Assembly (NCBI GenBank): GCA_029263415.1 | Contig: JAJCXN010000041.1 | Span: 141,338 to 205,337, forward strand | Length of the DNA stretch: 64,000 nt | Source of the DNA: Acidobacteriota bacterium | GTDB lineage: Bacteria; Acidobacteriota; Thermoanaerobaculia; Multivoradales; Multivoraceae | Direction: 5' to 3' | In this document: positions 5,751 through 55,158 of the stretch, piece by piece | How the letters are laid out: the number at the start of each line of letters is the position of its first letter | Numbering within the stretch: the first letter of the stretch is position 1 | The notes under the pieces: model-generated | The model's input: only the letters and a program-made list of their open reading frames with translations | Told to the model about the DNA's origin: nothing | The model's database searches: none | Position numbers and translations under genes: made by a program

Positions 5751-6929
5751 GTGAAGCGGCTCGCGGTTTTTCTCGACGGGACCTGGAATGACCCAGCTAG
5801 CAGGACCAATGTGTCTCGGCTGCACGGCTTGGTCGCTGACGTTGGCACAGATGGCGCACGACAACTCGCGTACTACGACACAGGCGTCGGCACCAAACGC
5901 TTTGAGAAGCTGCGGGGTGGCGTGGGTGCTTATGGGCTCTCTAGGAACGTCAGACAAGCCTACGGCTGGCTGAAGGAGCAGTACGAAGAGGGAGATGAGG
6001 TCTTCGTCTTCGGTTTCAGTCGGGGAGCGTTCACCGCGCGCAGCGTTGCAGGAATGATCGCTCGCTATGGGTTGCTTATGCCCGACTCGTCGGTGACGGT
6101 GGATGAACTCTACGAGCTCTACCGCGCCGAAGCGAAAGGCAAGCCTGGGCCGGGCTCTGTGGAGGAGGCCCTTGTTAGTCGCTTGAAAGAGAATGCCCGC
6201 CGGATACGCGTCCGCTTTGTCGGCGTCTGGGACACGGTCGGTACTTTGGGTGTGCCGTTTGGAAACATCCCGGGTATCAGTCGCAAGCAGTTTCGCTTCC
6301 ACAACACCCGGCCCAGCCGATGGATCGACGAAGGGTGTCAGGCGCTTGCGATCAATGAGAATCGAAGGGCCTACGACGCCGTGTTGTGGACCAACTTTCT
6401 GGCCTTGAATCCTGCGACCGGGAAGATCGCCGACCCACTGCGCCGTTCGCAGGTTCACCATCCGTCGTTCGAACAACGGTGGTTCATTGGAGTGCACTCG
6501 AACGTCGGCGGTGGTTATCCAGATGACGTTCTAGCTCTGCCGCCACTGTCATGGATCCAACGCCGCGCCGCCGGTGCGGGCCTGGCCTTCACCGCTACTG
6601 TTGCGTTGAGCGGTGACGAGCACTTGCGAGGAGAGCTGGTTGACTCGTTCAAGAGGTTCATGAAGGGCATCTATCAGATCGTCCGGTTCAATCGGCGTCA
6701 CTATCGCGAGATCGGTCGAGCCCTGGTGGAACGCAGCGGTCGCTCGGTCGGCTTGCTGGAGACAGTCAACGAGAGCATCGATCGCACGGTGATCGAACGC
6801 TGGCAGCAGGACGGTGAATACCGGCCAAAGAATCTGCGCGAGTTCGCCGATCGAGCCGGCATCGACCTTGAGGCGCCGGCGCCTGCTGACAGCCTAAAGG
6901 TCGAGAGCGACTGGGACTCTCACACCTAG
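5751..6929 (+). CDS. DUF2235 alpha/beta-hydrolase (Tle1-like phospholipase family)
   Basis: The N-terminus MKRLAVFLDGTWND and YYDTGVGT are hallmarks of DUF2235. It has a GxSxG nucleophile elbow (GFSRG) and a VWDTVG block. GTG start, with AGGGA about 9 nt upstream. Confidence 0.7.
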   Translation: MKRLAVFLDGTWNDPASRTNVSRLHGLVADVGTDGARQLAYYDTGVGTKRFEKLRGGVGAYGLSRNVRQAYGWLKEQYEEGDEVFVFGFSRGAFTARSVAGMIARYGLLMPDSSVTVDELYELYRAEAKGKPGPGSVEEALVSRLKENARRIRVRFVGVWDTVGTLGVPFGNIPGISRKQFRFHNTRPSRWIDEGCQALAINENRRAYDAVLWTNFLALNPATGKIADPLRRSQVHHPSFEQRWFIGVHSNVGGGYPDDVLALPPLSWIQRRAAGAGLAFTATVALSGDEHLRGELVDSFKRFMKGIYQIVRFNRRHYREIGRALVERSGRSVGLLETVNESIDRTVIERWQQDGEYRPKNLREFADRAGIDLEAPAPADSLKVESDWDSHT

Positions 6930-13925: not shown

Positions 13926-14128
13926 GGTCCATCGCCGATTGTATCGACTATAGCTAGAACTATCTCTAGTTCAAGAGCAGGGTCATGGCTCCTTGCCCGG
14001 AGGACGAACTCAGCCAGCAACGCGAACTGGTGCTCCTCCGGCAACCTCGTGATCAGTCCTGGGCACCGATCGGTCCCGGGCACAGGGTAAGGTGGTCACC
14101 ACAGGACAAACAAAACGGGGGTTGGACA

Positions 14129-15091
14129 ATGAAGCAGAACCATTCGGGTGCGCAAGCCCGAGGAGCACGTAGCAAGGGTGGACGGCTGCGCTTGAAAACC
14201 AACTGTTCGCGTTCGCCGATGGCGCTGGTGGCGTTGCTGTCGCTCGTGCACGTCGCTGGTGGCGTTGGTAATGCTCAGTCACAGCTTGCTCAGCCGTCCG
14301 TGCCCAAGGCCACTGTCGAACGACTGTTGCGAGTCGGCAAGGCACTTCCTGGCCGTGTTGAACTCAAGCTTACCCTTGGCGAACCAGCAGATCCCTTAGG
14401 CGACTTCCTGCCACGGGATGCCCGCTTTGTAGCGGGCGTCAGTTGGGAATCTGGAGCGCTGGCGCTTCTCGAGATGAGGCTGCCGCAAGAGGAGATACGG
14501 GACCAGCTGTTGGCCGCGGTGTCGAATACCCAGCTCTCGCTCATCCTGCCTCAAGGTTATGGCTTTGTAGCAAGTCCCGAAGGCTTTCCCGTCGTTTTCT
14601 GCCAAGGCGCAGAACGGCGTCTGAGAGTATGGCTGGTCGATGGAGGCGAGCAAGCCTCGGCCGATGAGCCAGCAGACTTAGCGTTGTTGTACACGGAGGG
14701 CGCCAGCGCGTGCCCAGAGGCACGATCGCGTGCAGCGCGAGCCAGCGTGCTGCCCATTCTCGTCGCACCGCCAAACGTAGAGGTTACTCGCGGTGGGAGC
14801 ACCAGTAGCAGCGGCGAATCGGAGAGCCAGCACGTGACGCTATCTTCCAGTCTCACACCGACCGAGCTGGTTCGTCACTTCGCTCTCGGGATGGAGGAGC
14901 AGTCCTGGCAACCGAACGTCCCGGTGGAACTCGAAAGTTTCGCGATGCAGACCTTCACTGCCTATGTGTTAGACGAGGCGACTGCCCGGACGTTCGCCTG
15001 GCACGCCACTCTGACGGTGCGCAGGGTAGCCAATGTGAGGATGAGGAGCGGCCGTATCACTGTGGAAAAGCTGGGCCCTGTCGACGAATAA
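14129..15091 (+). CDS. Hypothetical secreted protein
   Basis: Long ORF with coding-like composition. The internal ATG at 14129 is preceded by GGGGG and followed by a signal-peptide-like MALVALLSLVHVAGGVGNAQS. No recognisable domain. Divergent from the wH/AAA regulator pair. Confidence 0.45.
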   Translation: MKQNHSGAQARGARSKGGRLRLKTNCSRSPMALVALLSLVHVAGGVGNAQSQLAQPSVPKATVERLLRVGKALPGRVELKLTLGEPADPLGDFLPRDARFVAGVSWESGALALLEMRLPQEEIRDQLLAAVSNTQLSLILPQGYGFVASPEGFPVVFCQGAERRLRVWLVDGGEQASADEPADLALLYTEGASACPEARSRAARASVLPILVAPPNVEVTRGGSTSSSGESESQHVTLSSSLTPTELVRHFALGMEEQSWQPNVPVELESFAMQTFTAYVLDEATARTFAWHATLTVRRVANVRMRSGRITVEKLGPVDE

Positions 15092-15226: not shown

Positions 15227-17143
15227 TCAGGACGAACTCAGGGCGTTCGACTCGCTTTTAGGACCGCGCCTGGAGCCAACACCCCGGGGATCCCACGCCA
15301 CCTTTTCTGGCTCCAGCCCAACCTCAACCTTCTTCGCCACAAAAGAGGTCTTTCCGGTGTTCTCTTCCCACAAGCCGACGGCCATGTCATAGGCGCCTTC
15401 CCCCAGGAAGAACTCCGCTCGTAGTGCGAAGTAGTGATCCTTTGCCGCTGCGTGATCCCGCCGTGGAACTTCCACCACGAACGCCAGGTTGCGCGGACTC
15501 AAGCGAACTCCCGCCGCGTTCCGGAGTTGCACTACCGAGCGAAAGTTTCCAGCCACCACATCCCCGTTGCGAACCAGCTCTAGTCCGCCGATCGGCATGC
15601 TGACCACTACCGTCATCTTGCGACGGTCCGGTTGCTCGCCCGCCGCTTGCGACTCGACGGCGGCCTGCTCGAAAGAGGTGTCGATTTCGAGACCGTGCTG
15701 GTTCTCCTGCCAATCGAACAGCAACGTACCCCAAGCGCGACTGGCCAGGTTCTCTTCCATGCTGAGCGGAACGTAGCTTGCCCTGTGTCGCACTCTCGAG
15801 CGTCGTTCCCGAACCTTGAGTTCTATCTCGCGGATGGCTGTGCCCTCGAGCGAGCCCGGTGGGGTGAAGCTCAACGAGTAGTAGTTGGAGACGTCGGCGC
15901 GCGCGGTATCGACAAACTTCCCAAGGCCACTGTCGGCGGAGAAGGCGAGGCCGCCGGTGGCGTGGGCGAGCGCTGCGAGTCCTGAGTTCATGTCGGTGAG
16001 TTCAGCGATCGATCCTCGTTGCCCCTTGTTGGTGCCGAGGCCGGTGAGAGAACTATCAGTGATCGGCGCCTTGATTGGATAGAAGGTCACTCGATGGGTG
16101 TTGGCAAGCGCTGCAAGACGCTCAAACTCCTTGAAATTGCTGAACTGAGACACCAGTCGTTGGAACTGGCCGGAGCCGCCGTCGTCGAGTTGTAGGACCG
16201 TTTCCCCACGGCCATCCCCCATCTCGGTACCGGTGGATCGGGCGTTGGTGGTATTGATCGGGATGACGTTGGGATCGTCAATTGTGTCGCCGCCTTCGAA
16301 GGTCGACGATGCCCCAGCAAGGCGGTCGTTCATGGTACTGGCGAGGATGTCTAGTGGCTCGCGAGCAAGACCATCGGTGATGAACAGCAACGCCTTGCGG
16401 CCGGGGAGAAACGACAACGCCGCGACCACTTCCTCCAGTGAGCGTAGGGTCCGGCGCGCATCGTGTGCCAGCGCTTCCGCGTAGCCCCGAGATTGGATCG
16501 CCAAGCCGCGCAGTTCCGCCTGGCCGTAGCGATACGCCGACCCTCTTTGAGAGAGCTTCTTCAGGGTGCTTTGAGTTGCAGCAGAGATGGCGCGCTGCAA
16601 GGGAATGAGTTCGGAGGTGCTGGTCAATCGTTGCTTCGCAGCGTCGATTGCGGTTTGTACGGCGCCCACGTTGCGAGTGGGTGCTAGGAGCGGCTCGACG
16701 GTGTCCGAAACTGCGACCATCGCCACCCAGGTTGGGCTTTCGTTCATTTCACGAACAAGGACCGGCTTGATGATGTCGAGGACTCGGTCGCGATGGGCGT
16801 ACATCAGGTTGCGTTCGTCCATGACGACAACCGCGGTGAGTCTCGCTCCGATCGAGTCGCGCACGGTGCGTGCGTCGGACACGCCAGTGACCTTGACCTT
16901 CTTGCCGTCGACCCTCAAATCGAAGTCAGCGGTGCTGAGATCGGCAAGGCGCTCTCCCGAGCGATCGGTAACTACCGCGTCCAAGTGGATCAGGCGAACA
17001 TCGATGGCCTCGTCGACAGTGAATCGGTCGGGATCTACCGTGTCCTTCTTCTGCGCAGCGCCAAGCGATGCAACAGCGCACAGTACGCTGGCGGCCAGTG
17101 CGATGCGTCGTTGCGCTCGTGATGTTGTTTGTCGTTGTGTCAT
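15227..17143 (-). CDS. VWA domain-containing secreted protein (Acidobacteria-type VWFA-related family)
   Basis: ~638 aa from the ATG at 17143 (signal peptide MTQRQTTSRAQRRIALAASVLCAVASLGAAQ). VWA-like core (TAVVVMDERN...ALLFITDG). The track ORF start at 17401 extends into an implausible Arg-rich leader. Confidence 0.65.
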   Translation of the reverse strand: MTQRQTTSRAQRRIALAASVLCAVASLGAAQKKDTVDPDRFTVDEAIDVRLIHLDAVVTDRSGERLADLSTADFDLRVDGKKVKVTGVSDARTVRDSIGARLTAVVVMDERNLMYAHRDRVLDIIKPVLVREMNESPTWVAMVAVSDTVEPLLAPTRNVGAVQTAIDAAKQRLTSTSELIPLQRAISAATQSTLKKLSQRGSAYRYGQAELRGLAIQSRGYAEALAHDARRTLRSLEEVVAALSFLPGRKALLFITDGLAREPLDILASTMNDRLAGASSTFEGGDTIDDPNVIPINTTNARSTGTEMGDGRGETVLQLDDGGSGQFQRLVSQFSNFKEFERLAALANTHRVTFYPIKAPITDSSLTGLGTNKGQRGSIAELTDMNSGLAALAHATGGLAFSADSGLGKFVDTARADVSNYYSLSFTPPGSLEGTAIREIELKVRERRSRVRHRASYVPLSMEENLASRAWGTLLFDWQENQHGLEIDTSFEQAAVESQAAGEQPDRRKMTVVVSMPIGGLELVRNGDVVAGNFRSVVQLRNAAGVRLSPRNLAFVVEVPRRDHAAAKDHYFALRAEFFLGEGAYDMAVGLWEENTGKTSFVAKKVEVGLEPEKVAWDPRGVGSRRGPKSESNALSSS

Positions 17144-17262
17144 CGAGTGGTTGACCAGGGCGTTAGCAAGTGTTGGCGGCCGCCTGCTAGGAGTAGTTCG
17201 ATGATCGATACCTCCTCGGAGGTTCAGCCGGTCCGGAGAATGGTCAAAAGATGAACGGGCGA

Positions 17263-18318
17263 TCAATCCTGGGTCGCTTCTTGCGCGCGGCGTTGCAACT
17301 CCTCCCTTTCTAGAAGTCGAGCTCCGCGCAGGATGCCGCCCATGGCGTAGTTGCCTTCGTGACAGGCGTATTCGTACAGCCGGTCGTCGGTCAGCGGCCA
17401 CATTTGCGCGCCCGAATAGGGGGCTGCATAGTTTGTATCGTTGACCGTGAACTCATAGAGCAGTTCGTTCTGATTCTTGCGAGTGAAACGTTCGACGATG
17501 TGCAAACCCTCGCGGGCTTGGTTGGGCGTTTCGAGGAAGTTAGTGGTATCCACAACCAGCGTGTCGCCTTCCCAATGGCCGATGGAGTCGCCGCCGAGTG
17601 ATCGGATGTCCGACGGCGGGTGTTCGCTATTGAGGCGAATGACGCGGGCCCAGTGCATCCATTCCACCAAGATCATCACGTGGTTGTCGGTCTGCACGAT
17701 CGTCTTGAGGTTGTTGTAGAGCACCGAGCGCATTGGCACGGTGGTGACTGTGAGATAGATGCAGCGCTCGATCAGCGGCAGCGTTTCCGGATTGTCGTAC
17801 GGTCCACTCTCGAGATCGAGCCACCAGGCGTTGCCGGTGTTCTCGAAGGTGTAGGGGCGGATCTTGGCGAGACGCGCTTTGCCCGCTGAGGACAACGCCG
17901 GCATCTGACCATTGGGCGGATCGGTGAGCACCGAGGTGCGGTACTTGTCGCCGATCTTGAACATGCTGTTGCCCGGGTCGACCCAGAAGCTGTTGTAGCC
18001 GCCAACTTTGCCGGCAGCGCCAGCCGAGCCGTCGCCTCCGGGAGGCGGTGCCTCGCGGTTGGGATCGCTGTCGCGATCGGCGAAAGCCATGGCCGCCGCT
18101 GCGGAGCGCTCGATGGCCTGCGCCTGTTCGTCGGTGAGTTCCTGTTGATCGCCGAGCCCTGCCGCGCGGGTGAAAGGGGTGAGGGTCGCGATGTCGTAGT
18201 TGCCGGAGAGGTCTGGACGACCGCTTGGGGTCCTCGGCACTTCGTCTTGACTCAGGACTGGAAGGGAAATGAGGCTGAGAAGAACAGCGAGTGGAATGAT
18301 GTGTGGTGTCTTGGACAT
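17263..18318 (-). CDS. Conserved secreted protein of unknown function (paralog 1 of 2 in the window)
   Basis: Signal peptide MSKTPHIIPLAVLLSLISLPVLSQ. Shares PRTPSG.PDLSG.YDIATLTP, GGYN.FWVD, VLYNN, WxGDTLVV.T.NF and the C-terminal YEYACHEGNYAMGGIL with the ORF at 55159-56271. GGAGAG lies upstream of the ATG at 18318. Confidence 0.6.
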   Translation of the reverse strand: MSKTPHIIPLAVLLSLISLPVLSQDEVPRTPSGRPDLSGNYDIATLTPFTRAAGLGDQQELTDEQAQAIERSAAAAMAFADRDSDPNREAPPPGGDGSAGAAGKVGGYNSFWVDPGNSMFKIGDKYRTSVLTDPPNGQMPALSSAGKARLAKIRPYTFENTGNAWWLDLESGPYDNPETLPLIERCIYLTVTTVPMRSVLYNNLKTIVQTDNHVMILVEWMHWARVIRLNSEHPPSDIRSLGGDSIGHWEGDTLVVDTTNFLETPNQAREGLHIVERFTRKNQNELLYEFTVNDTNYAAPYSGAQMWPLTDDRLYEYACHEGNYAMGGILRGARLLEREELQRRAQEATQD

Positions 18319-18557
18319 AGCGCTCTCCGGAAAGTTCACGCGTCGTTGCCAGAACCGTTGGGGCCTCGTCGAGGACAAGGGTGGTTTCGGTAGGAGGGGG
18401 CCTTTGATGGACGCGAACCCTGAGTGTACCGGTAGCGTGTTTGGCCGGAGCTAGATGGTGTCGGCGCCTAGCATCGCACGCTCCCACTTGCGGTGAGCGC
18501 GATTTGCCGATCAACTACTGCCCAATCCCGACGACGAACTGCTTGAGGCTCCTCGAT

Positions 18558-20603
18558 ATGACACGAATGAGAACAGTCCGCACGCTGGTGTACTGCTGCA
18601 TTGCGGCTGTATGGATGGTCGCCCTGGCGGCGCTGCCTGCAATAGCTCAAGAGCCAGCAGCGCCCACAGCGGCAGTAGATCAAGAGTGGCGCCACTACGG
18701 CTCGGACCGTCAGAGTTCCAAGTACTCGCCTGCGGATCAGATCGATGAAAACAACGTTGCCGAGCTTGAAGTTGCCTGGCGCTGGCAATCCCCAGACGGC
18801 GCAGTTGGCGGGCGAGGGGGAGTCAGTCCGCTCAAGGTCACGCCAATCTTGGTAGATGGCGTGCTCTATGCGATCAGCGCTCTGAATTTGCTCAGTGCGA
18901 TCAACCCGATCACCGGCGAGGAACTATGGCGCTACGACCCCAAGGCGTACGAAGGGACACGACCAACCCACGGGGGACTGAACCATCGAGGCCTCGAATC
19001 TTGGACCGGTCCGCGCGACCCGGAGGCGGTGCCAGGTGACGAGACCGAAGCTGTGACGCGCCTGGTCTATGGAACCGGGACGCAGCAATTGATCTCGATC
19101 GACCCTAGAACCGGGAAGCCTGATCCCGCATTCGGCGAAGGGGGAGTGGTCGACATGCGACCCGACGTGGCTGAAGAGAAGGACGTGCGCCACACGGGGC
19201 TCAACTCGCCGCCGATCGTTTGCGCCGACACCATCATCGTCGGCATGGTGGTGAATGACTTCGGCACTACGCAGAAGATGCCGGTCGGTCACGTGCGCGG
19301 CTACGATGTGCGAACCGGCGAGAAGCGCTGGACCTTCCACTCGATTCCTCAAGGTAATGAATTGGGCACCGAAACGTGGGAAGAGGAATCGTGGCGCTAC
19401 TCAGGCAACACCAATGTCTGGTCCTTGATGAGTTGCGACAATGAAACTGGCATAGCCTATCTGCCGTTTGGCACGCCGACCAACGACCACTACGGCGGGC
19501 ATCGCCTGGGCAACAATCTCTATGCCGAGAGCTTGGTTGCGGTTGACGCTGCAACGGGAAAGCGGGTCTGGCATTTTCAAGGAGTACACCACGGGCTGTG
19601 GGACTACGACTTTCCCTGTGCCCCCAACCTGATCGACGTCACGGTTGATGGCGAGTTGATTCCCGCGGTTGCTCAGGTTTCGAAGCAGGGCTACACCTAC
19701 GTGTTGAACCGCGTGACCGGCAAGCCGGTGTGGCCGATTGAAGAACGGAAGGTCGCGCCCAGCACGGTGCCCGGCGAACGGGCGTCTGAGACCCAGCCGA
19801 TTCCTAGCAAACCACCACCTTTTGATCTGGTTGGTATTGGGAAAGACGACTTGTTGGATCTGACTCCCGAGATCAAGGAAGCGGTTGTAGAGACTGCTTC
19901 GAAGTACAAGATGGGGCCGTTGTTTACTCCCCCCATCGTGGGTGGCGAAGACGGTAAGTACGCAACCATCATCTCGCCCGGACTCGCAGGTGGAGCGAAT
20001 TGGGGCGGCGCTGCGGTTGATCCCGAGTCCGGCGTGCTCTTCGTCCCGTCTCAGACTAGGGTGATGACGGTTTCGGTAGCGCCGCCTTCCGGGCGGCTGC
20101 GCGGCGACCTCGATTTCATGCGCCAGCATCCTCCGTTGTCGGGACCCGGCGGTTTGCCGATCACCAAGCCACCCTGGAGCCGGATCACGGCGATCGATCT
20201 CAACAAGGGAGAAATCCTGTGGCAGGTGGCCCATGGTGAAGGCCCGAAACATCACCCAGCTCTGGAAGGGCTCGAGCTCGAGGCATTGGGCTCTTGGCCG
20301 TTGGCGGGACTAGCCCCGGGCTGGCCGATGGCGACCAAGACGCTGTTGTTTGCAGCCCAGGGTGTGCAAGGGATTGCCGGGGGCGAAACCACTGGATACT
20401 TGCGGGCTTACGACAAGGCAAGCGGCGATCTGGTTTGGGAGAAGGACCTTGGTCATCCTGCGCGGGGTGCACCGATGACCTATGTGGTCGATGGCCAACA
20501 GTTCATTGTGGTGGCGATCGGTGATGCCTCGAAGGTCCGTGAGTTGGTCGCCTTCGCGCTACCAACGTCCGCGCCCCAAGCTGGGGGCGCCGAAACGGGG
20601 TGA
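18558..20603 (+). CDS. PQQ-dependent dehydrogenase (quinoprotein alcohol/sugar dehydrogenase family), periplasmic
   Basis: Signal peptide, then WRHYGSDRQSSKYSPADQIDENNVAELEVAW (typical quinoprotein N-terminal block). Repeated W-containing propeller motifs; ~680 aa. No CxxCH heme domain seen. Confidence 0.8.
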   Translation: MTRMRTVRTLVYCCIAAVWMVALAALPAIAQEPAAPTAAVDQEWRHYGSDRQSSKYSPADQIDENNVAELEVAWRWQSPDGAVGGRGGVSPLKVTPILVDGVLYAISALNLLSAINPITGEELWRYDPKAYEGTRPTHGGLNHRGLESWTGPRDPEAVPGDETEAVTRLVYGTGTQQLISIDPRTGKPDPAFGEGGVVDMRPDVAEEKDVRHTGLNSPPIVCADTIIVGMVVNDFGTTQKMPVGHVRGYDVRTGEKRWTFHSIPQGNELGTETWEEESWRYSGNTNVWSLMSCDNETGIAYLPFGTPTNDHYGGHRLGNNLYAESLVAVDAATGKRVWHFQGVHHGLWDYDFPCAPNLIDVTVDGELIPAVAQVSKQGYTYVLNRVTGKPVWPIEERKVAPSTVPGERASETQPIPSKPPPFDLVGIGKDDLLDLTPEIKEAVVETASKYKMGPLFTPPIVGGEDGKYATIISPGLAGGANWGGAAVDPESGVLFVPSQTRVMTVSVAPPSGRLRGDLDFMRQHPPLSGPGGLPITKPPWSRITAIDLNKGEILWQVAHGEGPKHHPALEGLELEALGSWPLAGLAPGWPMATKTLLFAAQGVQGIAGGETTGYLRAYDKASGDLVWEKDLGHPARGAPMTYVVDGQQFIVVAIGDASKVRELVAFALPTSAPQAGGAETG

Positions 20604-20666: not shown

Positions 20667-22526
20667 CTAGAGAGCGATCGGTCCGTGGCCCTCGATGAGT
20701 AGCTCGTCGACGGTCATGGTCACGTGCTCGCCTTGGCGGACGTCGTGATCAAACTTGTAGGTCACTCCGAGATCGCCCTTGCTCGCGGCCGCGTCGTACT
20801 CAGCGGCCTTGGCTCGTGTGATCTCAACGCGATCGCGCCAAGCGCTCATGGCGTCGCCACCAAACGTTTGCTCCAGCTGTTGTTGAACGACATGCGGACC
20901 AGCCACCCAGGCAGTTGCGTTGTTGCCGCCAAAGCCTTTGGCGTTGAGAAACGCGACGTCGTAGTCGGTAGCAGCGCCCGTGATGTGTTCGCTGTCGATG
21001 CGCAATCGATCGCCTGAAATGTCGTCGGCAGGTCCGTCGATGGTGGCGATGCCGGGGATCACACCGTCGGCCCAGGTACCCAAGCAGGAAGCCAACTGGT
21101 CGCCACCGGCAGCTGCCATGGTGTGACCGACGAAGCACTTGATGGCGGCGACTGGCCATTCCTGGATGTCGAAGGTTTTGGCAACTAGATCGAGAATCTC
21201 GGATTCACTCGTGCGGTTCTGCGGCGTCCCCGTGCCGTGAGCGTGTACGAAGCTGCGTTGTGCGATGGCTTCAGTACCGAGCACCTTGCGCGCCGACGCG
21301 ACGGCCTTGGCAAAGGTGATGTAGTTGCCCACCCCAGGAGAGGAGATCGATTTTTTGTGTCCGTCAGCGTGCACAAAGACGTCGCCGACAGCGCCCAAGA
21401 TGTTGGCGCCCATCTCGACCGCGAGCTCGGCGTCCATCAAGACGCAGAACTGGGCCCCCTCGCCCATGACGAAACCACCGTTGATGCCAAAGGGACGGCA
21501 GGCCCTTCGATGATTGGGAGTCTCGCCCGGCTGCTTGCCTTCGAGCTGGAGCAAAGCGGCGTCGCCAATCAAAGCGCCCATGGTGGCGAGTCCATCCATC
21601 GCGTCCGCCACCAGCGGCGCCTCGACGCCGCCAATCACCGCGACGCGCGAGCGACCTTCACGAATGTCCTGTACGCCTAAGCGCAGGTTGTAGTGGAAGG
21701 TGGCGCATGCGCCCATGTTGTGGCCGGTTTGGCCCATGCTGCCGAGTACGTAGGCGTTGGTGAAGTCGGCGGCCATCTCGCCAAGGCCCATTGGTACCTG
21801 CTTCGAAGATACCCGCTTGCCCCGTTGGCGAGAGGAGAGCAGGCCACCGTTGCCGTTTTGATCGAGCTGGGTCATGGCGCTGCCAGCGTAGGTTGAGAAC
21901 TGGTCGGGTGGTACTCGATCAAGGATGGTCTGCCAGTCGATACCAAGACTGTTGATCGCATCGCTCGCTGCCACGACCGTGAGTTCCAGGCCGCGAGGAT
22001 GACTGCGTGCGGGATAGTGGTCGCCGGGCTCGAAGCCAGTGGGAACCATGCCGCCCGCTGCAACTCCGAGGTCGCGCGTGTCGGGCACGAACAGTTCTGT
22101 TTGGTCGGTGACCGTGATGGTGATGCGTTGCTTGTTGCCTTCGCCCTTTGTGCTTTCGACAGTCCACCCTGGCGGCATGGCCTCAGGCAACTCGCGCTTG
22201 CTGATCTCGAAGCGGAGTGGAGTGTCTGTGGCTTGCAGGCAAACGCGTCGGTTCCAAGGAGCAGCGTTGGGATTGAAGAACGACGGCTCAATGCGGCGGA
22301 CTAAGGACCCGGTCCTTAGGCGCTCAATGGCAGCTTGGTCGAGGCTATCGGCGTTCTTGCTACCTGTGAGGCCGGCTAGGCTGCGCCACATCGCGTCGAC
22401 TTTGGCGGTGGGGAGGGCTGAGTGCGTGGTACGTCGGTAGGCTTGGTGAGAGGAACTTCGACCGGCGGCACCGACACCGCCGAAACTGACAATGACCGGG
22501 AGTCGCTGAGAAAAGTTAGTGGACAC
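20667..22526 (-). CDS. Beta-ketoacyl-ACP synthase with a long N-terminal extension (FabY-like KAS I/II-type initiating condensing enzyme)
   Basis: KS active-site Cys context GHNMGACATF, HAHGTGT and CFVGHTMAAAGG (KAS His/His). At 619 aa with a ~250-aa N-terminal extension it resembles the P. aeruginosa FabY class; that assignment is from memory. Confidence 0.7.
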   Translation of the reverse strand: MSTNFSQRLPVIVSFGGVGAAGRSSSHQAYRRTTHSALPTAKVDAMWRSLAGLTGSKNADSLDQAAIERLRTGSLVRRIEPSFFNPNAAPWNRRVCLQATDTPLRFEISKRELPEAMPPGWTVESTKGEGNKQRITITVTDQTELFVPDTRDLGVAAGGMVPTGFEPGDHYPARSHPRGLELTVVAASDAINSLGIDWQTILDRVPPDQFSTYAGSAMTQLDQNGNGGLLSSRQRGKRVSSKQVPMGLGEMAADFTNAYVLGSMGQTGHNMGACATFHYNLRLGVQDIREGRSRVAVIGGVEAPLVADAMDGLATMGALIGDAALLQLEGKQPGETPNHRRACRPFGINGGFVMGEGAQFCVLMDAELAVEMGANILGAVGDVFVHADGHKKSISSPGVGNYITFAKAVASARKVLGTEAIAQRSFVHAHGTGTPQNRTSESEILDLVAKTFDIQEWPVAAIKCFVGHTMAAAGGDQLASCLGTWADGVIPGIATIDGPADDISGDRLRIDSEHITGAATDYDVAFLNAKGFGGNNATAWVAGPHVVQQQLEQTFGGDAMSAWRDRVEITRAKAAEYDAAASKGDLGVTYKFDHDVRQGEHVTMTVDELLIEGHGPIAL

Positions 22527-22688: not shown

Positions 22689-23681
22689 GTGTTCCACGTT
22701 GCATTCATCGTCCATCCGCGCGCTCTCCTCACAGGCCTGACGATCCCGCTCGAGATGCTGCGGGCTGCAGACGAGATCGATCGCGTCAGCAGACGAGAAC
22801 CGTCACGCTTGAGGGTGAGCATTGCCACCACCGGCGATCGTGCTTTTGAGGCGCTGGGTGCTCTGACCGTAGTGCCTCAGCAGCCTCTCGCCGAGCTAAG
22901 ACATGTCGATTTGGTGTTCATCCCTCCGTTCTGGAGGAAGCCGAAGGTCAATCTTCCTGCTGTGATCCATCAACTGGTCGAACTCGAGGCGCAGGGTGCA
23001 TCGATCTGCGCGGTGAGCACTGGGTCGTTCCTGTTAGCGGAGGCGGGGCTGCTGGACGGGCGCGCAGCCACAACACACTGGTCCTTTCTGAACGACTTCG
23101 CCGAGCGCTACCCTAGTGTCCTGCTTAAGCGCCATCATTTGATTACTCGTTCTGAGCGACTCTTCTGTGCAGGAAGTCTAAATGCCACGGCCGATCTCAC
23201 CGCGTTCTTCATCGAGCGATGGTTGGGCACCGAGACCGCACGATTGGTCGAGGCTCAGTTCTCGCCTGAGATTAGGCAACCGGTGCGACAACAAGGGTAC
23301 TTCGACGGTGAGATCAACGAACAGCCCGACGAACTCATGGCAGTGGCTCAAGGGTGGTTGACGGAACGGCTCGCTGGGCCAGTGCGAGTGACCGAGTTGG
23401 CTAAGCATCTCGGTGTGAGTCAGCGCTCCTTAAATCGAAGGTTCCAGATTGCCGTTGGTTGCACTCCCGGGAAGTACCTGAGGGACTTGAGGGTGGAGGC
23501 CGCAACTGGACTCTTGAGGAACAGCAACTTGTCGGTGGCAGAGATTGGGGTCCGCGTGGGCTACGTCGATGCGGGGCACTTCTCGACCGTCTATCGTCGC
23601 AGTACGGGCAGATCGCCGCGAGCGTTCAGAGCGGCAGTGAGGGTGAAGTTGTTTGGTTCCGGGGTCGAGACCGCCAAGTAG
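22689..23681 (+). CDS. GlxA-family transcriptional regulator (DJ-1/PfpI-like domain + AraC HTH)
   Basis: N-terminal DJ-1/PfpI-like region (VFIPPFW...ICAVSTGSFLLAEAGLLDGRAATTHW). C-terminal AraC-type HTH (LAKHLGVSQRSLNRRFQ...GYVDAGHFSTVYRRSTGRSP). GTG start. Confidence 0.8.
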   Translation: MFHVAFIVHPRALLTGLTIPLEMLRAADEIDRVSRREPSRLRVSIATTGDRAFEALGALTVVPQQPLAELRHVDLVFIPPFWRKPKVNLPAVIHQLVELEAQGASICAVSTGSFLLAEAGLLDGRAATTHWSFLNDFAERYPSVLLKRHHLITRSERLFCAGSLNATADLTAFFIERWLGTETARLVEAQFSPEIRQPVRQQGYFDGEINEQPDELMAVAQGWLTERLAGPVRVTELAKHLGVSQRSLNRRFQIAVGCTPGKYLRDLRVEAATGLLRNSNLSVAEIGVRVGYVDAGHFSTVYRRSTGRSPRAFRAAVRVKLFGSGVETAK

Positions 23682-23801: not shown

Positions 23802-25259
23802 ATGTTCAAAGTCAAATCCCGTTCCCTAGCGCGGCTGTCCGTGCTGTTTTCATGCGCTGCGTTACTCGCAGCCTCAGCGTTTGCCGCAGCCCCAGTGGAG
23901 ACCGACAACTGGCCATCCTTCCGAGGCTCGAAGGCATTGTCGATTGCGGATGATGATCCCCGCTTGCCGACCAGCTGGAGTACCGAAGAGAACGTGGCAT
24001 GGAAGGTGCCGGTTGATGGACTGGGCTGGTCGTCGCCCGTGATTTGGGGCAACAAAGTCTTTGTGACCACGGTTGTTAGCGACGGTGAGGTTGAAGAGCC
24101 AAAGATGGGCCTCTACTTTCCGTATGGCTCGCCAGAGTCTGGCGGATTCCCGACCAAGGACGGCGTCTTGATGGAGCGCGCGAAGGACCAGCATCATTGG
24201 TGGGTGTATGCCTTCGATTTCGAGACTGGCGAGTCACTGTGGAAGACCAAAGTGCACAGTTCAGTGCCCAATTTTGATCGCCATTTGAAGAACACCTATG
24301 CGTCGGAGACCCCGGTCACCGACGGCGAACGTGTCTATGCGATGTTCGGCAACGTTGGTGTATGGGCCTTGGACATGGACGGCAAGATTTTGTGGAACAA
24401 GCCCATGGAGGCCAGTGCCACTCGACTAGGTTGGGGAACCGCCGCATCACCGGTGTTGCACGGCGAGACCTTGGTGGTGGTCAACGACAACGACGACCAG
24501 TCCTACATGATGGGCTTAGCCGCAAGGACCGGCGAAGTCGGCTTCACGGTCAAACGCGAAGAGGGCACCAACTGGTCGACACCGTTTGTGTGGGAGCACG
24601 AGGGTCGTACGGAGATCGTCACCGCTGGCAGCGATCAAGTGAGGTCCTATGACCTCGAAGGTCGGCAACTGTGGAGTCTGAGCGGCATGGATTCGATTTC
24701 GATTCCGCAACCGTTCAGCGCGCACGGTCTTCTCTATCTGACGTCCGGCTACGTCGGCGACAAGATTAAGCCAGTGTTTGCGATCCGTCCCGGCGCTACT
24801 GGTGACATCACTTTAGAAGAAGGACAACAGAGCAACGAATACGTTGTTTGGTACAACGACTCTGCGGGCCCTTATCATCCGACCCCGCTGGTCTACGGCG
24901 ACTACTACTTCACCTTGCTCGACCTTGGTTTCTTCACTGTGCACAACGCCAAGACCGGTGAGGAGTTGTACTTCACCGAGGATCAAAAGGCGTCCAAGCA
25001 AGTCAAGCGCAGGATCAAGCGTGGGTCCGGTGGATTCACCGCGTCGCCTTGGGCCTACAACGGCAAGATCTTTGTGCTGAGTGAAGATGGCGATACTTAC
25101 GTTCTCGACAGCGCCAACAACTTTGAGCTGGTGGGCACGAACTCGCTGGACGAAGTGGCGATGTCGACACCGGCAATGGCTAGGGGTTCGTTGTTCATCC
25201 GAACGCGCGGTCATCTCTATCGCTTGACCAATGCTGATGCGAAGGTGAGTGGCCCGTAG
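23802..25259 (+). CDS. PQQ-like beta-propeller repeat protein (BamB-like fold), secreted
   Basis: Signal peptide MFKVKSRSLARLSVLFSCAALLAASAFAA. Repeated [WSSP.I.....VFV.T..G] propeller blades (WSSPVIWGNKVFVTT, ETPVTDGERVYAMFGN, VWALDMDGKILW). Confidence 0.7.
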   Translation: MFKVKSRSLARLSVLFSCAALLAASAFAAAPVETDNWPSFRGSKALSIADDDPRLPTSWSTEENVAWKVPVDGLGWSSPVIWGNKVFVTTVVSDGEVEEPKMGLYFPYGSPESGGFPTKDGVLMERAKDQHHWWVYAFDFETGESLWKTKVHSSVPNFDRHLKNTYASETPVTDGERVYAMFGNVGVWALDMDGKILWNKPMEASATRLGWGTAASPVLHGETLVVVNDNDDQSYMMGLAARTGEVGFTVKREEGTNWSTPFVWEHEGRTEIVTAGSDQVRSYDLEGRQLWSLSGMDSISIPQPFSAHGLLYLTSGYVGDKIKPVFAIRPGATGDITLEEGQQSNEYVVWYNDSAGPYHPTPLVYGDYYFTLLDLGFFTVHNAKTGEELYFTEDQKASKQVKRRIKRGSGGFTASPWAYNGKIFVLSEDGDTYVLDSANNFELVGTNSLDEVAMSTPAMARGSLFIRTRGHLYRLTNADAKVSGP

Positions 25260-25314
25260 CGGTCCTCGGCGAAACGACGGTTGCGTCGGTTCGCTTTCCA
25301 AGGCTTGGTGCAGG

Positions 25315-26595
25315 ATGGAGCAGGCTGATTATGAGCCAGCGCTCGTGCGCACAGGCGCACGTCTGGCGGGCTGGGGCCCGGTTCTGAGACGCGGTGCGAG
25401 TGCGCCGCGAGTGCCATGCTTTGGAGGAGTGCTGCTAGTGCTCTTTGCCGGCGCGACAGCGGAGGCGCAGGACGATACCTGGGTCGGCGGAGCCGCTCAG
25501 GTGGTGCATGCGCACTGTGCGAGTTGCCATCACGTCGGCGGGCCAGGGCCGATGGCTTTGGTGACGTATGACCAAGTGCGGCCTTGGGGCAAAGCGATTG
25601 CCCGGCAGGTGCAGAACGGCCGGATGCCGCCGTGGCACGCGGTCGCGGGTGGTGAGTTTTCGAACGACCGTCGGCTAGACGACGCTGAACGCGAGCTGCT
25701 GTTGCGGTGGGTGGCTGGCGGAATGGCTCGCGGCGAGGGCGTGGTTGAACTGCCAGAATTCGAGCAGGGCTGGCGGATCGGAGAGCCCGATCTAGTGATC
25801 GAGATGCCCGAGGTGGTGACCGTCCCAGCGAGCGGAGAGCTGCCATACCACGACTACCTGGTAGACCCGGGCTTCACCGAGGACGTCTGGGTTAAGGCCG
25901 CCGAGTCGCGCCCGGGCAATTCCAAGGTTGTGCACCACATCATCGTCGGCTACTTGATCGAAGACCCGTTGGCGCGACGACGGCTAGCAGCGCAGGGGCA
26001 AGAGGGCCGGGTGCAAGGTAGCTTGGGTGGCTATGTGCCAGGAGATGAACCGTTGATTCTCGAACCGGGCTTGGCTCGGCTGATTCCGAAGGGTTCGAAG
26101 ATCTACTTTCAGATGCACTACACGCCGAACGGCGAAGAGCAGACGGATCGTTCGCGACTGGGTCTGGTGTTCGCCGACGGGCCGCCCAATCACGAAGTCA
26201 AGACTGGTATTGCATCGAGTCCGTTCATCCGAATTCCGGCGGGGTCGGAGGACACTTCGTTGTCTGCGACGTTTCGGTTCACGAGCGAGAGCGTCCTGCT
26301 TTCAATGAGGCCGCACATGCACCTGCGTGGCAAGACCTTTGAATATCGCGTGCGCTATCCAGACGCGAGCGAAGAAGTTCTGCTCAAGGTCGATGACTAT
26401 GACTTTGGATGGCAGACCAACTACATGCTGCAAACCCCAAAGGTCTTGCCTGCGGGAACTGAACTGATTTGTACGGGATCGTGGGACAACACGGCCGCAA
26501 ATCCCAACAATCCCGATGCAGGCAAGACTGCGTCGTGGGGTCAGCAAACCGATGACGAGATGATGATCGGGTTCTTCGAGTACTACCACCGCTAG
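25315..26595 (+). CDS. Mono-heme cytochrome c domain fused to a copper type-II ascorbate-dependent-monooxygenase-like (PHM/DBH-like) domain; secreted. The start is uncertain (possible GTG near 25405).
   Basis: CASCHH heme c site. PHM-like ligand pattern with near-canonical spacing: HH (aa 229-230), H (290), HMH (356-358), M (438-439), counted on the track ORF. Confidence 0.55.
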   Translation: MEQADYEPALVRTGARLAGWGPVLRRGASAPRVPCFGGVLLVLFAGATAEAQDDTWVGGAAQVVHAHCASCHHVGGPGPMALVTYDQVRPWGKAIARQVQNGRMPPWHAVAGGEFSNDRRLDDAERELLLRWVAGGMARGEGVVELPEFEQGWRIGEPDLVIEMPEVVTVPASGELPYHDYLVDPGFTEDVWVKAAESRPGNSKVVHHIIVGYLIEDPLARRRLAAQGQEGRVQGSLGGYVPGDEPLILEPGLARLIPKGSKIYFQMHYTPNGEEQTDRSRLGLVFADGPPNHEVKTGIASSPFIRIPAGSEDTSLSATFRFTSESVLLSMRPHMHLRGKTFEYRVRYPDASEEVLLKVDDYDFGWQTNYMLQTPKVLPAGTELICTGSWDNTAANPNNPDAGKTASWGQQTDDEMMIGFFEYYHR

Positions 26596-26941
26596 CAGTC
26601 CGTGGTGAAACTCGCGCGGGACTGAGCGCGGGGATCTGGGTGGTCAGTTCGTGGTGCGCCGGCCTCCCGCGGGACCGCAGTGAGGAGTACCCGAGCAAGC
26701 TCGAGCACAGGTAGATGTTCCACGGAAGGCTTCGCACTCCCGCGGGAGGCTTGCGCACCGGGGTATCGTTGACGAGCATCGGTCCCACGGGAGGCTCGCG
26801 CACTACGATTTGGCCGCCCAAACCCCGTGGGACGGCGCTCGAACTCAGCCCACGGGAACTTCACCACTCACTGCTAGCCGGGTCGACTATCATCTCGACT
26901 TCCTTGTCCAGACAACACGTCCTCTTCATTGCGAGATCCTC

Positions 26942-28483
26942 ATGACCTCAGCCATTGTCATCTTCGGGTATCTGGCGGTGGTGACCGCCGTTGGTTCACT
27001 ACTCGCGCGCCGCACGCAGTCGTCGTCGGATTGGGCGGTTGCCGACGGTCGGATGGGAATCATCCTGGTCGCGGCGGGCGTTGCCGGCACCAGAATCGGT
27101 GGTGTTGGCACCTACGGAGTGGCGGGAGATGTGCTCCAAGACGGTCTGTGGAGTCTCTGGTACGCGGTGAACACGTTCCTTGCTCTAGCCATGGTTGGGC
27201 TGTTCTTTGCCGTTCCTTTCCGCCGGCTCAAGCTGCAGACGGTGGGCGAGGTGTTCACCAAGCGCTTTGGCAGCAGGCGTTGCCAGAGCTTGACCAGCCT
27301 GTGTGTGCAGACTGAATACTTCATTATCAACATCCTCGAGCCGTTCATCATCGGCAGCATTGTCAGCACAGTGCTCGATATTCCGTTTGCACTAGGTGTG
27401 CTCATTGGCGCGGTGTGCTTGATTCTTTATACCGCGCTCGGCGGGCTCTGGGGGTCGGCAGCGACCAACGTGATCCACTGCACTGTGGTGCTGGCTGGCC
27501 TGGCGATGGTTAGCTGGATCGGGCTACGTGACGCCGGAGGTTGGACCGCTCTTAAGATGTCGGTGGATAGTGCTCTTGCGGCGAACCTCGCTGCTAACCC
27601 GAACGCGGTTCCAGCCGCCGAGTGGTGGAGTTTCATTGGGCCCGGGTGGGCGGTGGTGATTGCGATGTTTTTTTCCGCGACTATCCACACACCCGCGGCG
27701 TCTGTGTATGTCAATTTCTCGAGTGCAGCGCGCCGCGAGCGCACCTTGCTGCCCGCCTTTCTCTTGGCCGGTGGAGTCGCAGCGCTGATGCCGCTTTTGG
27801 CGGGGTTTGTGGGCATGCTGACGCTCGGTAAGTACGGTGCTGATTCGGGGCTTTCCAGTTATCGCTCGATCACGCAGCTTGCACTCGACATCAGTCCGCT
27901 CTTGGGCGGTATCGCCTTAGCAGCGATCCTTGCTGCGGTGATTTCTTCGGGCGGACCAATCCTGCTCTCGAGTTCCACCATGCTGGTGCGTGACTGGTTG
28001 CCTAAGATTGATGGGCTTGCTCAATCGCAGCAGTTGATGGCACTGCGTGTGACCACCGTGATCTACGGTTTGGTCGCAGCGCTGATCGCGTGGAAGGGGC
28101 AGATCGGCTCCATCCTCGACTTGCTGTTGCTCGGGTTTGCGATGGTGGTGCCTCCCGCGATCGCGCTGGCCTACGTGCTCTATTGGCGCCGGACCACCGA
28201 AGCAGCAAGCTTTTGGGGGATCGCGGTCGGTTACGGCGCGGGGCTTGCTTGGTACGCCGGCATTCGCTGGGCCGAGTCCGCAGGATGGAGCGCCGGTGAA
28301 GGTGCGGGGGCATTGGCCAACTTTGCGCAGTGGGGGTTTGTTAACGGCGGCGGCGTCGATCCGTCGTACATCACCACGCTGGTTCCGCTGGTCTTGATCC
28401 CGGTGATGAGCCTGCTCGGCAAGGACGTTGTGAATGGCACCAGCACGGCGTTCAGAAAGCAGCTCTCAACGCCCGCGGGGTGA
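26942..28483 (+). CDS. Sodium:solute symporter family (SSS) transporter
   Basis: ~13 TM segments. SSS-like N-terminus MTSAIVIFGYLAVVTAVGSLLARRTQSSSDWAVADGRMG and glycine-rich helices. Start at the internal ATG 26942; the upstream track extension is non-coding-like. Confidence 0.8.
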   Translation: MTSAIVIFGYLAVVTAVGSLLARRTQSSSDWAVADGRMGIILVAAGVAGTRIGGVGTYGVAGDVLQDGLWSLWYAVNTFLALAMVGLFFAVPFRRLKLQTVGEVFTKRFGSRRCQSLTSLCVQTEYFIINILEPFIIGSIVSTVLDIPFALGVLIGAVCLILYTALGGLWGSAATNVIHCTVVLAGLAMVSWIGLRDAGGWTALKMSVDSALAANLAANPNAVPAAEWWSFIGPGWAVVIAMFFSATIHTPAASVYVNFSSAARRERTLLPAFLLAGGVAALMPLLAGFVGMLTLGKYGADSGLSSYRSITQLALDISPLLGGIALAAILAAVISSGGPILLSSSTMLVRDWLPKIDGLAQSQQLMALRVTTVIYGLVAALIAWKGQIGSILDLLLLGFAMVVPPAIALAYVLYWRRTTEAASFWGIAVGYGAGLAWYAGIRWAESAGWSAGEGAGALANFAQWGFVNGGGVDPSYITTLVPLVLIPVMSLLGKDVVNGTSTAFRKQLSTPAG

Positions 28484-55027: not shown

Positions 55028-55158
55028 CAAAGTGTCTTTCGGTTGTCGGCTTAAGGGGGCGGGCTGAGAGGGTGGACCTGTGCCTGGATGGGCGTCCTGC
55101 GTCTCAGCTACGATAGCGCCAACCCGCATTGTTCAAGAACAGATAAGGAGGTAGTGCT

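Follow-up and report, generated by a model that had tools for sequence, protein, structure and literature searches.

In animals, noradrenaline is made and peptide hormones are amidated by two-copper enzymes. Two reviews take PHM, DBH and TBM to make up the class of uncoupled two-copper monooxygenases; only animal enzymes are cited for it, and plant BURP cyclases are mentioned as resembling them (PMC11234856, PMC12164859). The BURP-domain peptide cyclases (e.g. AhyBURP) are a recent non-animal class whose two-copper site resembles that of PHM in coordination and separation (PMC12164859). In PHM, the catalytic core of PAM (PDB 1PHM/1SDW/4E4Z; EC 1.14.17.3), the CuH ligands follow the order HH...H and the CuM ligands HxH...M. 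DBH features a DOMON domain, which holds no heme in the crystal structure, and a dimerisation domain in addition to its core. It depends on ascorbate, which is regenerated by cytochrome b561 across the granule membrane. Periplasmic copper enzymes with a class-I cytochrome c as built-in electron entry are found elsewhere, namely in cytochrome c-fused NirK, cytochrome c-bearing NosZ and caa3 oxidases. The copper domains of these enzymes are cupredoxins or CuA/CuZ and reduce nitrogen oxides or O2; to our knowledge, none of them has a PHM fold or hydroxylates C–H bonds.

Here, we describe a bacterial gene from the window, the 64,000-nucleotide stretch of Acidobacteriota DNA that was analyzed, whose product shares the order and aligned positions of the ligands of both PHM copper sites. 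In contrast to PHM, which resides in eukaryotic secretory granules, the protein is predicted to be periplasmic and carries a domain for a covalently bound heme c in front of the copper core, so that its electron donor is presumably cytochrome-based and not ascorbate. Unlike PAM it has no fused PAL lyase, but a separate gene for a BamB-like propeller lies upstream. It differs from DBH, tyramine beta-monooxygenase and MOXD1-type enzymes (PDB 4ZEL; EC 1.14.17.1) in having a CxxCH cytochrome c as its additional domain, and from the BURP cyclases, which are plant autocatalytic RiPP cyclases without a heme domain. A full-text literature search returned no description of bacterial cytochrome c/PHM fusions and no characterized or experimentally studied member. 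This agrees with the suspicion, raised in an earlier note on this DNA, that no such enzyme class has been described, even though databases contain such sequences in abundance, under other names.

A cytochrome c fused to a PHM-like core

The open reading frame of the fusion gene spans 25249..26595 (+) and opens at GTG 25249, with an alternative ATG at 25315. The 426-residue product of the latter, whose numbering is used throughout, matches a database protein (P0001) from end to end with 100% identity; NCBIfam has no model that fits it. The features of the locus are compiled in Table 1.

Table 1. Positions of genes, domains and predicted ligands in the window
Feature	Coordinates (nt)	Strand	Basis or remark
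PQQ dehydrogenase gene, genuine	18441-20603		near fusion gene
AraC/FtrA-like regulator gene	22689-23681		flanks propeller/fusion pair
BamB-like eight-bladed beta-propeller gene, exported, 485 aa	23802..25259	+	Pfam PQQ_2, 53.6 bits
Cytochrome c/PHM-like fusion gene	25315..26595	+	ORF list; 426 aa from ATG 25315
Predicted Sec signal peptide, aa 1-51	25315..25467	+	hydropathy and sequence inspection
Monoheme class-I-like cytochrome c domain, aa ~52-135	25468..25719	+	helices 56-67, 85-100, 123-134
Heme c attachment motif C68-A-S-C71-H72	25516..25530	+	99/99 invariant
M104-P-P-W107 motif	25624..25635	+	MPPW invariant in alignment; M104 99/99
PHM N-terminal-like beta-sandwich, aa ~150-300	25762..26214	+	CuH-type site H207, H208, H268; conserved Q266
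CuH-type HH pair H207/H208	25933-25938	+	426-aa numbering
CuH-type third His H268	26116	+	426-aa numbering
PHM C-terminal-like beta-sandwich, aa ~301-425	26215..26589	+	CuM-type site H334, H336, M416; subfamily-specific R332
CuM-type H334-M-H336	26314-26322	+	426-aa numbering
CuM-type Met M416	26560	+	426-aa numbering
Sodium:solute symporter gene	26810-28483		flanks propeller/fusion pair

The relationship to PHM is remote, with a sequence identity of ~15–20%. Neither a search of PDB sequences with the single protein (phmmer) nor one with a profile of the PHM-like core (hmmsearch) gave a match to this part, and a profile of the full alignment found thioredoxin-fold proteins only, via a redoxin domain present in longer family members. 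Homology is visible only via Pfam, profile-profile comparison and structure. The AlphaFold2 model of the fusion protein (pLDDT 82.9, pTM 0.79) had human DBH and rat PHM as its leading Foldseek matches, with E values of 5e-12 to 1e-10 over ~282–317 columns, and the best 31 matches were all DBH or PHM. As far as the model goes, the protein thus fulfills the criterion of a catalytic core made of two beta-sandwich domains (PHM/PNGase F-like), and the fold similarity without which the earlier note would have considered its own proposal refuted is present. Of the two Pfam profiles it had named as a check, the C-terminal one holds and the N-terminal one does not: Cu2_monoox_C (PF03712) matches aa 301–425 with 24.8–24.9 bits against a cut-off of 23, a small margin, and is also matched by 25 of 32 homologues at E<=0.01, while PF01082 finds no match in the fusion protein at E<=1 and only a single one among the 32 homologues (E 0.0019). 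The PHM-like N-domain was detected only by structure and profile-profile alignment.

All six copper ligands postulated from the residue pattern coincide with those of PHM, in the order His-His-His for CuH and His-His-Met for CuM. In an hhalign comparison of the family core with the rat PHM core (E 8.9e-5 over 226 columns; the rat sequence is identical to PDB 4e4z_A, and its residue numbering was checked), H207/H208/H268 fall on H107/H108/H172 of CuH and H334/H336/M416 on H242/H244/M314 of CuM, with Q266 opposite Q170 and R332 opposite R240. The paired motifs, family first, are VVHHIIV/TVHHMLL, FQMHY/LQVHY, RPHMHLRGK/RVHTHHLGK and DDEMMIGFFEYY/SDEMCNLYIMYY, the likeness including a DEM...YY motif around the Met ligand. 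Ligand spacings were measured at 60, 66 and 80 residues, just as first estimated, compared with 64, 70 and 70 in rat PHM. That the His and Met residues fail to come together in two copper sites, which would also have counted against the earlier proposal, is not indicated by the alignment. Other features of PHM are missing: of the substrate-binding residues, N316 and Y318 have no conserved counterpart, I418 and F420 standing at their positions, and the PHM disulfides are absent, C386 being the only non-heme cysteine of the mature protein.

Attachment of a c-type heme requires export to the periplasm, and the lack of a Sec signal had been named as another result that would overturn the proposal. 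Hydropathy and inspection instead point to a signal-like N-terminus with an Arg-rich n-region, a hydrophobic h-region at aa 34–46 and an A-E-A|Q cleavage motif. Residues 1–48 have a pLDDT below 50 in the AlphaFold2 model, and homologues in a 32-sequence alignment feature equivalent hydrophobic segments in the same layout. The mature chain begins with a small domain of three helices that contains the heme attachment motif and M104 within an invariant MPPW motif. MP(P/A)(F/W) is typical of this type of cytochrome c, and from this motif alone M104 is inferred to be, in all likelihood, the axial ligand at the sixth position of the heme. The heme site had originally been read as CASCHH; the CxxCH motif is invariant in the family, but the second histidine is not conserved, most homologues having CHRPG. 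Taken together, sequence comparison and the predicted model confirm an exported protein in which a cytochrome c is fused to a PHM/DBH-like two-copper core, with the binding of copper and heme themselves inferred.

Conservation and distribution of the family

Conservation was assessed in 99 full-length homologues from 89 loci. Ten residues (C68, C71, H72, M104, H207, H208, H268, H334, H336 and M416) are each invariant in 99/99 sequences, and Q266 is conserved in 95/99. Every full-length family member examined has the cytochrome c domain. Position 332, a pocket residue, varies between R, M, F and T across the family, arginine being found in 16/99 homologues and only in the window's clade.

The survey of cytochrome c/PHM fusions and their neighbors that the earlier note had called for revealed a very large family, which comprises no fewer than 14,452 clusters when grouped at 50% identity, and a consistent propeller neighbor in the window's clade. 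The family occurs in 593 or more GTDB species, the majority of them Acidobacteriota and Planctomycetota. Named sources likewise belong mostly to these two phyla, with cultured isolates in only three of 80 loci (Singulisphaera spp., Anatilimnocola sp.). Some members form tandem arrays of 4–5 diverged paralogues. An argument against the use of O2, based on a homologue in a MAG of the anammox organism 'Kuenenia', was dropped since the label is doubtful: the contig has a GC content of 54.6%, compared with roughly 41% for Kuenenia.

A proposed heme-tethered copper monooxygenase

With moderate confidence, and without biochemical data, we propose that the protein is a periplasmic heme-c-tethered copper monooxygenase of the PHM/DBH type with two separate, non-coupled copper sites. 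The heme c (C68/C71/H72, axial M104) would take single electrons from periplasmic respiratory carriers and pass them to the three-histidine CuH (H207, H208, H268) in the neighboring N-terminal beta-sandwich. From there, they would reach the His2Met CuM (H334, H336, M416) in the C-terminal beta-sandwich, where O2 may be bound and activated and a C–H bond of the substrate hydroxylated in the manner of PHM and DBH. The part that ascorbate has in the animal enzymes would fall to the tethered heme. That the fused heme c is present in 99/99 homologues suggests such a cytochrome-based donor, although this is an inference only. As for the substrate, R240 of PHM binds the substrate carboxylate; R332 occupies its place in the window's clade, where by analogy, and from the alignment alone, the substrate may bear a carboxylate. 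Speaking against a monooxygenase are the remoteness of the relationship to PHM, the unmatched PF01082 profile, the loss of N316 and Y318, the missing disulfides, a redoxin domain in more than half of the family and the lack of any redox-enzyme trait in the upstream propeller.

If correct, the occurrence of all six ligands in a very large family of prokaryotic proteins would mean that this catalytic design is widespread among bacteria of soil and water, and abundant, poorly understood phyla would possess a kind of periplasmic oxygenase new to their metabolism. With its fused heme c, the enzyme would naturally contain an electron donor that can be followed by spectroscopy, so that the long-debated electron transfer from CuH to CuM and the open/closed mechanism could become directly measurable. 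Ascorbate-independent hydroxylases of such kind could also be possible biocatalysts.

The most serious competing explanation, which we consider unlikely but by no means negligible, is that the family serves oxidant defense or acts as an oxidase, in which periplasmic O2, superoxide or (alkyl) hydroperoxides are reduced with cytochrome c electrons by the copper sites and, in the long forms, a redoxin domain. Such an N-terminal AhpC/TSA-redoxin domain is found in 54/98 family members and could indicate peroxide or thiol redox chemistry instead of hydroxylation; an OsmC gene lies directly downstream of the family gene at one locus (L007); and members are annotated as 'peroxiredoxin / mono-diheme cytochrome c family protein', 'redoxin domain-containing protein' or 'alkyl hydroperoxide reductase', among others. 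However, nothing but the redoxin domain appears to underlie this naming, and the domain has lost the first cysteine of its CxxC motif (GTECP) and is absent from the window protein and its whole clade. Furthermore, the His3/His2Met pair with the conserved Q266 is a specific signature of C–H hydroxylating enzymes, and the tandem paralogue arrays fit substrate diversification better than a single role in detoxification.

The upstream propeller and the direction of electron flow

The highly conserved propeller gene shares the strand of the fusion gene and stops 55 nt short of it. Its ortholog lies directly upstream in 15/15 loci of the window's clade, the window included (one gene away in L001), at a distance of 4 to 152 nt where the gap was called, and R332 and the propeller occur together in 14/15 cases. 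A scan for promoters and terminators gave nothing above background and no convincing terminator between the two genes, which apparently form an operon in this clade. The propeller probably acts with the fusion enzyme as a partner, a substrate presenter or a second-step enzyme, a role that is inferred. A natural single-chain fusion also exists: P0241 joins a redoxin domain, the cytochrome c/PHM-like region of the family (core profile match at aa 318–592) and a PQQ_2 propeller. The link is not universal, as close relatives of the propeller occur without a PHM-like neighbor (L090/L091) and most long-form loci have no propeller next to them. Beyond the window's clade, it is limited to few cases, namely P0241, two loci with weaker propeller matches adjoining the family gene (L020, L077), and L092, where a distant family member is found two genes downstream of the propeller. 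Clustering of flanking ORFs revealed only clade-level synteny (e.g. a GFO_IDH_MocA oxidoreductase) and shadow ORFs; the regulator and symporter genes that flank the pair are not conserved at the other loci compared.

The gene pair may be a periplasmic analog of bifunctional PAM, even if we rate this as improbable. A carboxylate-bearing substrate, a peptide C-terminus being one candidate, would be held by R332 in the way R240 of PHM binds the carboxylate of peptidyl-glycine. It would be hydroxylated with electrons delivered by the heme directly from the respiratory chain and not by ascorbate, and the next reaction would be catalyzed or aided by the propeller, a task that the PAL propeller has in animals. 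In a wider sense, all of the 14,000 or more clusters of the family would represent unrecognized, respiratory-chain-coupled periplasmic C–H hydroxylases in Acidobacteriota and Planctomycetota.

Electrons could also flow in reverse, with the copper domain oxidizing a substrate and the heme c exporting electrons to the respiratory chain, much as tethered cytochrome c domains accept electrons in quinohemoprotein alcohol dehydrogenases. This fits the genuine PQQ dehydrogenase gene nearby and the PQQ dehydrogenase and cytochrome b genes that flank the propeller in L092, yet we regard it as distinctly improbable. We know of no PHM-fold enzyme that acts as a dehydrogenase, and the partner propeller resembles cofactor-less BamB and not PQQ enzymes. 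BamB and tetrathionate hydrolase are the closest solved structures to its AlphaFold2 model, no PQQ or quinoprotein dehydrogenase is among the 50 best structural matches listed, and PF01011 matches only as a fragment (24.1 bits, below the cut-off of 26.7). The idea that the propeller itself is a PQQ dehydrogenase feeding the heme is therefore unsupported, and it has no sign of a redox enzyme. In addition, the His2Met CuM site is tuned for O2 activation (PMC11234856, PMC12164859).

Very little credence is left for a non-catalytic protein that keeps the PHM scaffold for copper binding, copper trafficking or electron shuttling. A weak Sco1/SenC-like match in one of 32 redoxin-bearing members and the lack of a nameable substrate would be in line with it, but two distinct sites, an inter-site glutamine and a heme strictly invariant across phyla exceed the constraint that a chaperone needs, and both the large paralogue expansions and the variable residue 332 suggest varied substrates. 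Finally, the His and Met residues might resemble those of PHM by coincidence, in a beta-sandwich protein of no relation to it. Only the low identity to PHM and the empty PDB sequence searches could be cited for this reading, and it is effectively refuted by Foldseek, hhalign and the ligand invariance: since the ten residues are unchanged in a family with a mean column identity of only 34% (32-sequence alignment), the arrangement is far beyond chance.

Fold and putative copper ligands of the fusion protein

Translation of the cytochrome c/PHM-like gene from the ATG at 25315 gives a product of 426 aa, identical over its full length to P0001, a protein in a public collection. An earlier note had described a heme c motif followed by the copper ligands of peptidylglycine alpha-hydroxylating monooxygenase (PHM) and dopamine beta-hydroxylase (DBH). 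This motif order and its spacing proved accurate: the positions and the spacings of 60, 66 and 80 residues were reproduced, against 64 (H108 to H172), 70 (H172 to H242) and 70 (H244 to M314) in rat PHM. Export is predicted as well, since an Arg-rich n-region is followed by a hydrophobic core (aa 34-46, mean hydropathy ~2.3) and the cleavage motif A-E-A|Q at aa 49-51; the absence of a Sec signal, which would have spoken against the proposal, is thus not observed. In the alignment, homologues carry equivalent signal-like N-terminal segments.

Features of the fusion protein and its upstream neighbour, with the corresponding segments of rat PHM
Feature	Position	Strand	Fusion protein / rat PHM segment	PHM residues	Remark
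Exported beta-propeller, 485 aa	23802-25259	+			55 nt ahead of fusion gene, same strand
Fusion-protein ORF	25249..26595	+			Single long ORF of region
CASCH	aa 68-72				Heme c motif
Pfam Cytochrome_CBB3	aa 61-109				24.8 bits vs cut-off 27, just below
HH	aa 207/208		VVHHIIV / TVHHMLL	H107, H108
H268	aa 268		FQMHY / LQVHY	H172, Q170
Pfam Cu2_monoox_C	aa 301-425				24.8 bits vs cut-off 23
H334-M-H336	aa 334-336		RPHMHLRGK / RVHTHHLGK	H242, H244, R240
M416	aa 416		DDEMMIGFFEYY / SDEMCNLYIMYY	M314

Profile searches bore out the proposed copper domain in part: the C-domain model was matched above its cut-off, while the Pfam N-domain model PF01082 found no match in the fusion protein and matched only 1 of 32 homologues. 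Across these 32 family members, Cu2_monoox_C matches 25 and Cytochrome_CBB3 30 at E<=0.01. Plain sequence searches of the PDB returned no match, so the homology to PHM is remote. The fold itself is nevertheless recognizable in an AlphaFold2 model built from the alignment (pLDDT 82.9, pTM 0.79), in which disorder is limited to the first 48 residues: the best 31 Foldseek matches in the PDB are all DBH (4zel, E 4.8e-12) or rat PHM, with ~282-317 aligned columns and a TM of up to 0.64 on the target. Profile-profile alignment of the PHM-like core of the family with that of rat PHM (sequence identical to PDB 4e4z_A; E 8.9e-5, 226 columns) places every copper ligand in register, in agreement with the proposed ligand order of a His3 site (CuH) and a His2Met site (CuM).

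The ligands are also strictly conserved. In an alignment of 32 diverse homologues, whose identity to the query ranges from 43-69% (mean column identity, 34%), H207, H208, H268, H334, H336 and M416 are invariant, as is M104-P-P-W107, and CxxCH is present in every sequence not truncated at the N terminus. The sample was widened to 80 loci from one-genome-per-species GTDB representatives, to which metagenome contigs were added; across 99 full-length ORFs of the family, drawn from 89 loci, the six putative copper ligands and the residues C68, C71, H72 and M104 are each invariant (99/99). Q266 is kept in 95 of the 99, and residue 332 varies between R, M, F, T, S and L. The mature fusion protein contains only three cysteines, the two heme cysteines and C386; the disulfide framework present in PHM is therefore absent.

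The upstream beta-propeller

No convincing terminator separates the fusion gene from the propeller gene. All other loci of the window's clade (L001, L002, L007-L018) have a propeller ortholog (E 1e-178 to 1e-247) upstream of the fusion gene, immediately adjacent except in L001, in which the distance is one gene; gaps go down to 4-24 nt. The remaining flanking genes vary within the clade, and the AraC/FtrA-like regulator and sodium:solute symporter flanking the pair in the window are not conserved at other loci. On a Thermoanaerobaculia-like contig (L007), an OsmC gene of the organic hydroperoxide reductase family (6239-6754) sits directly 3' of the fusion gene. The clade is marked by Arg332, the equivalent of PHM R240, which occurs in 15 of 98 homologues and is accompanied by the propeller gene in 14 of these 15.

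Conservation within the propeller family is very high: identity is 63-80% among the best 120 database matches, and many polar residues are invariant, for instance D159-R160-H161-L-K163-N164. Judged from sequence, this unusual conservation would fit an enzyme or a dedicated binding protein better than a generic scaffold. The family also occurs without a PHM-like neighbour. The predicted structure (AlphaFold2, pLDDT 73.5) most resembles BamB and tetrathionate hydrolase, and the best 50 structural matches listed include no quinoprotein dehydrogenase; on this basis the possibility of a PQQ enzyme was rejected as unsupported. In P0241, a redoxin, the cytochrome c/PHM-like region of the family and a PQQ_2 propeller form a single natural chain, whose propeller aligns with that of the window over its whole length (22% identity, E 6e-8). 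On a 7.2-Mb contig (L092, 494-7976), genes for a PQQ dehydrogenase (690 aa) and a Ni_hydr_CYTB-type cytochrome b precede the propeller, followed by a 310-aa gene of unknown function directly 3' and then a distant, 462-aa cytochrome c/PHM-like member (E 3e-42). This cluster could be a membrane-to-periplasm electron route.

Distribution and architectures of the family

The survey of such fusions that the earlier note had proposed, with neighbours compared across loci, revealed a large family: an HMM scan over 1.84 billion representative proteins gave 14,452 clusters at E<=1e-3, the number falling to 3,338 at E<=1e-30, and a GTDB scan at least 593 confirmed species-level matches. Among the matches listed, most named sources belong to Acidobacteriota (Thermoanaerobaculia, Holophagales, Blastocatellia, Terriglobia, Bryobacterales) and Planctomycetota (Gemmataceae, Pirellulaceae, Isosphaeraceae), with a few carriers in Nitrospirales and Opitutaceae. 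Singulisphaera spp. and Anatilimnocola sp. NA78 are among the carriers in culture; the closest relatives of the window protein are from Acidobacteriota MAGs (66-73% identity). Databases contain family sequences in abundance, but the names given to them are uninformative or derive from the redoxin domain.

About half of the members (54/98) carry an extra N-terminal AhpC/TSA-redoxin domain; the window protein is of the short form without it. In the long forms (alignment A1; e.g. P0046, P0073, P0080) this domain resembles the thioredoxin folds 3u5r, 2ywi and 2cvb, with GTECP in place of CxxCP. As only the second Cys of CxxC is kept, a role as a standard dithiol oxidoreductase is unlikely. Rarer architectures add a C-terminal alpha/beta-hydrolase or esterase (P0131), an N-terminal BlaR1-type M56 peptidase with a C-terminal CBM48 (P0154) or EF-hands (P0125), or duplicate the whole unit in tandem (P0123). 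Three Blastocatellia MAG contigs (L062, L065, L080) bear one-strand tandem arrays of 4-5 diverged paralogues, suggesting diversified substrate specificity. One long-form homologue (L067) is labelled as a Candidatus Kuenenia stuttgartiensis MAG; its contig has a GC content of 54.6%, compared with roughly 41% in Kuenenia, and the label or binning is doubtful.

Proposed mechanism

Of the readings considered, the evidence best supports a periplasmic monooxygenase of the PHM/DBH type that has two separate copper sites and its own heme c as electron donor, a chemistry that is inferred and has not been shown. Periplasmic carriers would reduce heme c, which would pass electrons to CuH and from there to CuM, the site at which O2 would be activated to hydroxylate a C-H bond. 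This is supported by the completely conserved PHM ligand set, by the cytochrome domain in every member examined, and by retention of the equivalent of Q170, the Gln that in PHM lies on the electron path proposed to lead from CuH to the substrate. The predominance of Acidobacteriota and Planctomycetota, including the cultured Singulisphaera and Anatilimnocola, is also in line with it, with oxygen requirements unchecked. The main rival, a role in oxidant defence, is rated unlikely but is not closed off, given how often a redoxin domain is fused. Residue 332 is variable, paralogues occur in arrays and the accessory domains are diverse, all of which suggests many different substrates.

By fold and ligands, the fusion protein belongs to the PHM/DBH superfamily, failing one sequence-level criterion, the PF01082 model; unlike PHM and DBH, it presumably does not use ascorbate. 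A cytochrome c tethered to a periplasmic copper enzyme is known from NirK, NosZ and caa3 oxidases; we found no case of one tethered to a PHM-fold monooxygenase. In agreement with the earlier note, which did not recognise a described enzyme class here, no paper describing bacterial members was found in the full-text literature, where most subscription journals were not covered, and an earlier report cannot be excluded. Two recent reviews list only PHM, DBM, TBM and plant BURP cyclases (PMC12164859, PMC11234856). The family is real, widespread, uncharacterised and mechanistically attractive, its function still being inferred.

Other genes of the window

Upstream of the propeller/fusion pair, at a distance of 3 kb, is a genuine PQQ-dependent dehydrogenase gene (18441-20603, +; PF01011, 615 bits); its scores do not reach the cut-offs that NCBIfam sets for the membrane-bound glucose/quinate and methanol/ethanol subfamilies. 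The beta-ketoacyl-synthase-like protein at 20667-22526 (-; 619 aa) has an N-terminal extension of ~180 aa ahead of its KS domain. For three large ORFs, 13985-15091 (+; 368 aa), 15227-17401 (-; 724 aa) and 53759-55129 (-; 456 aa), Pfam gives no match at the thresholds applied. Finally, the ORF at 5751-6929 (+) strongly matches the catalytic domain of T6SS Tle1-like phospholipase effectors (227 bits) and adjoins a cytochrome P450 gene (4346-5638).
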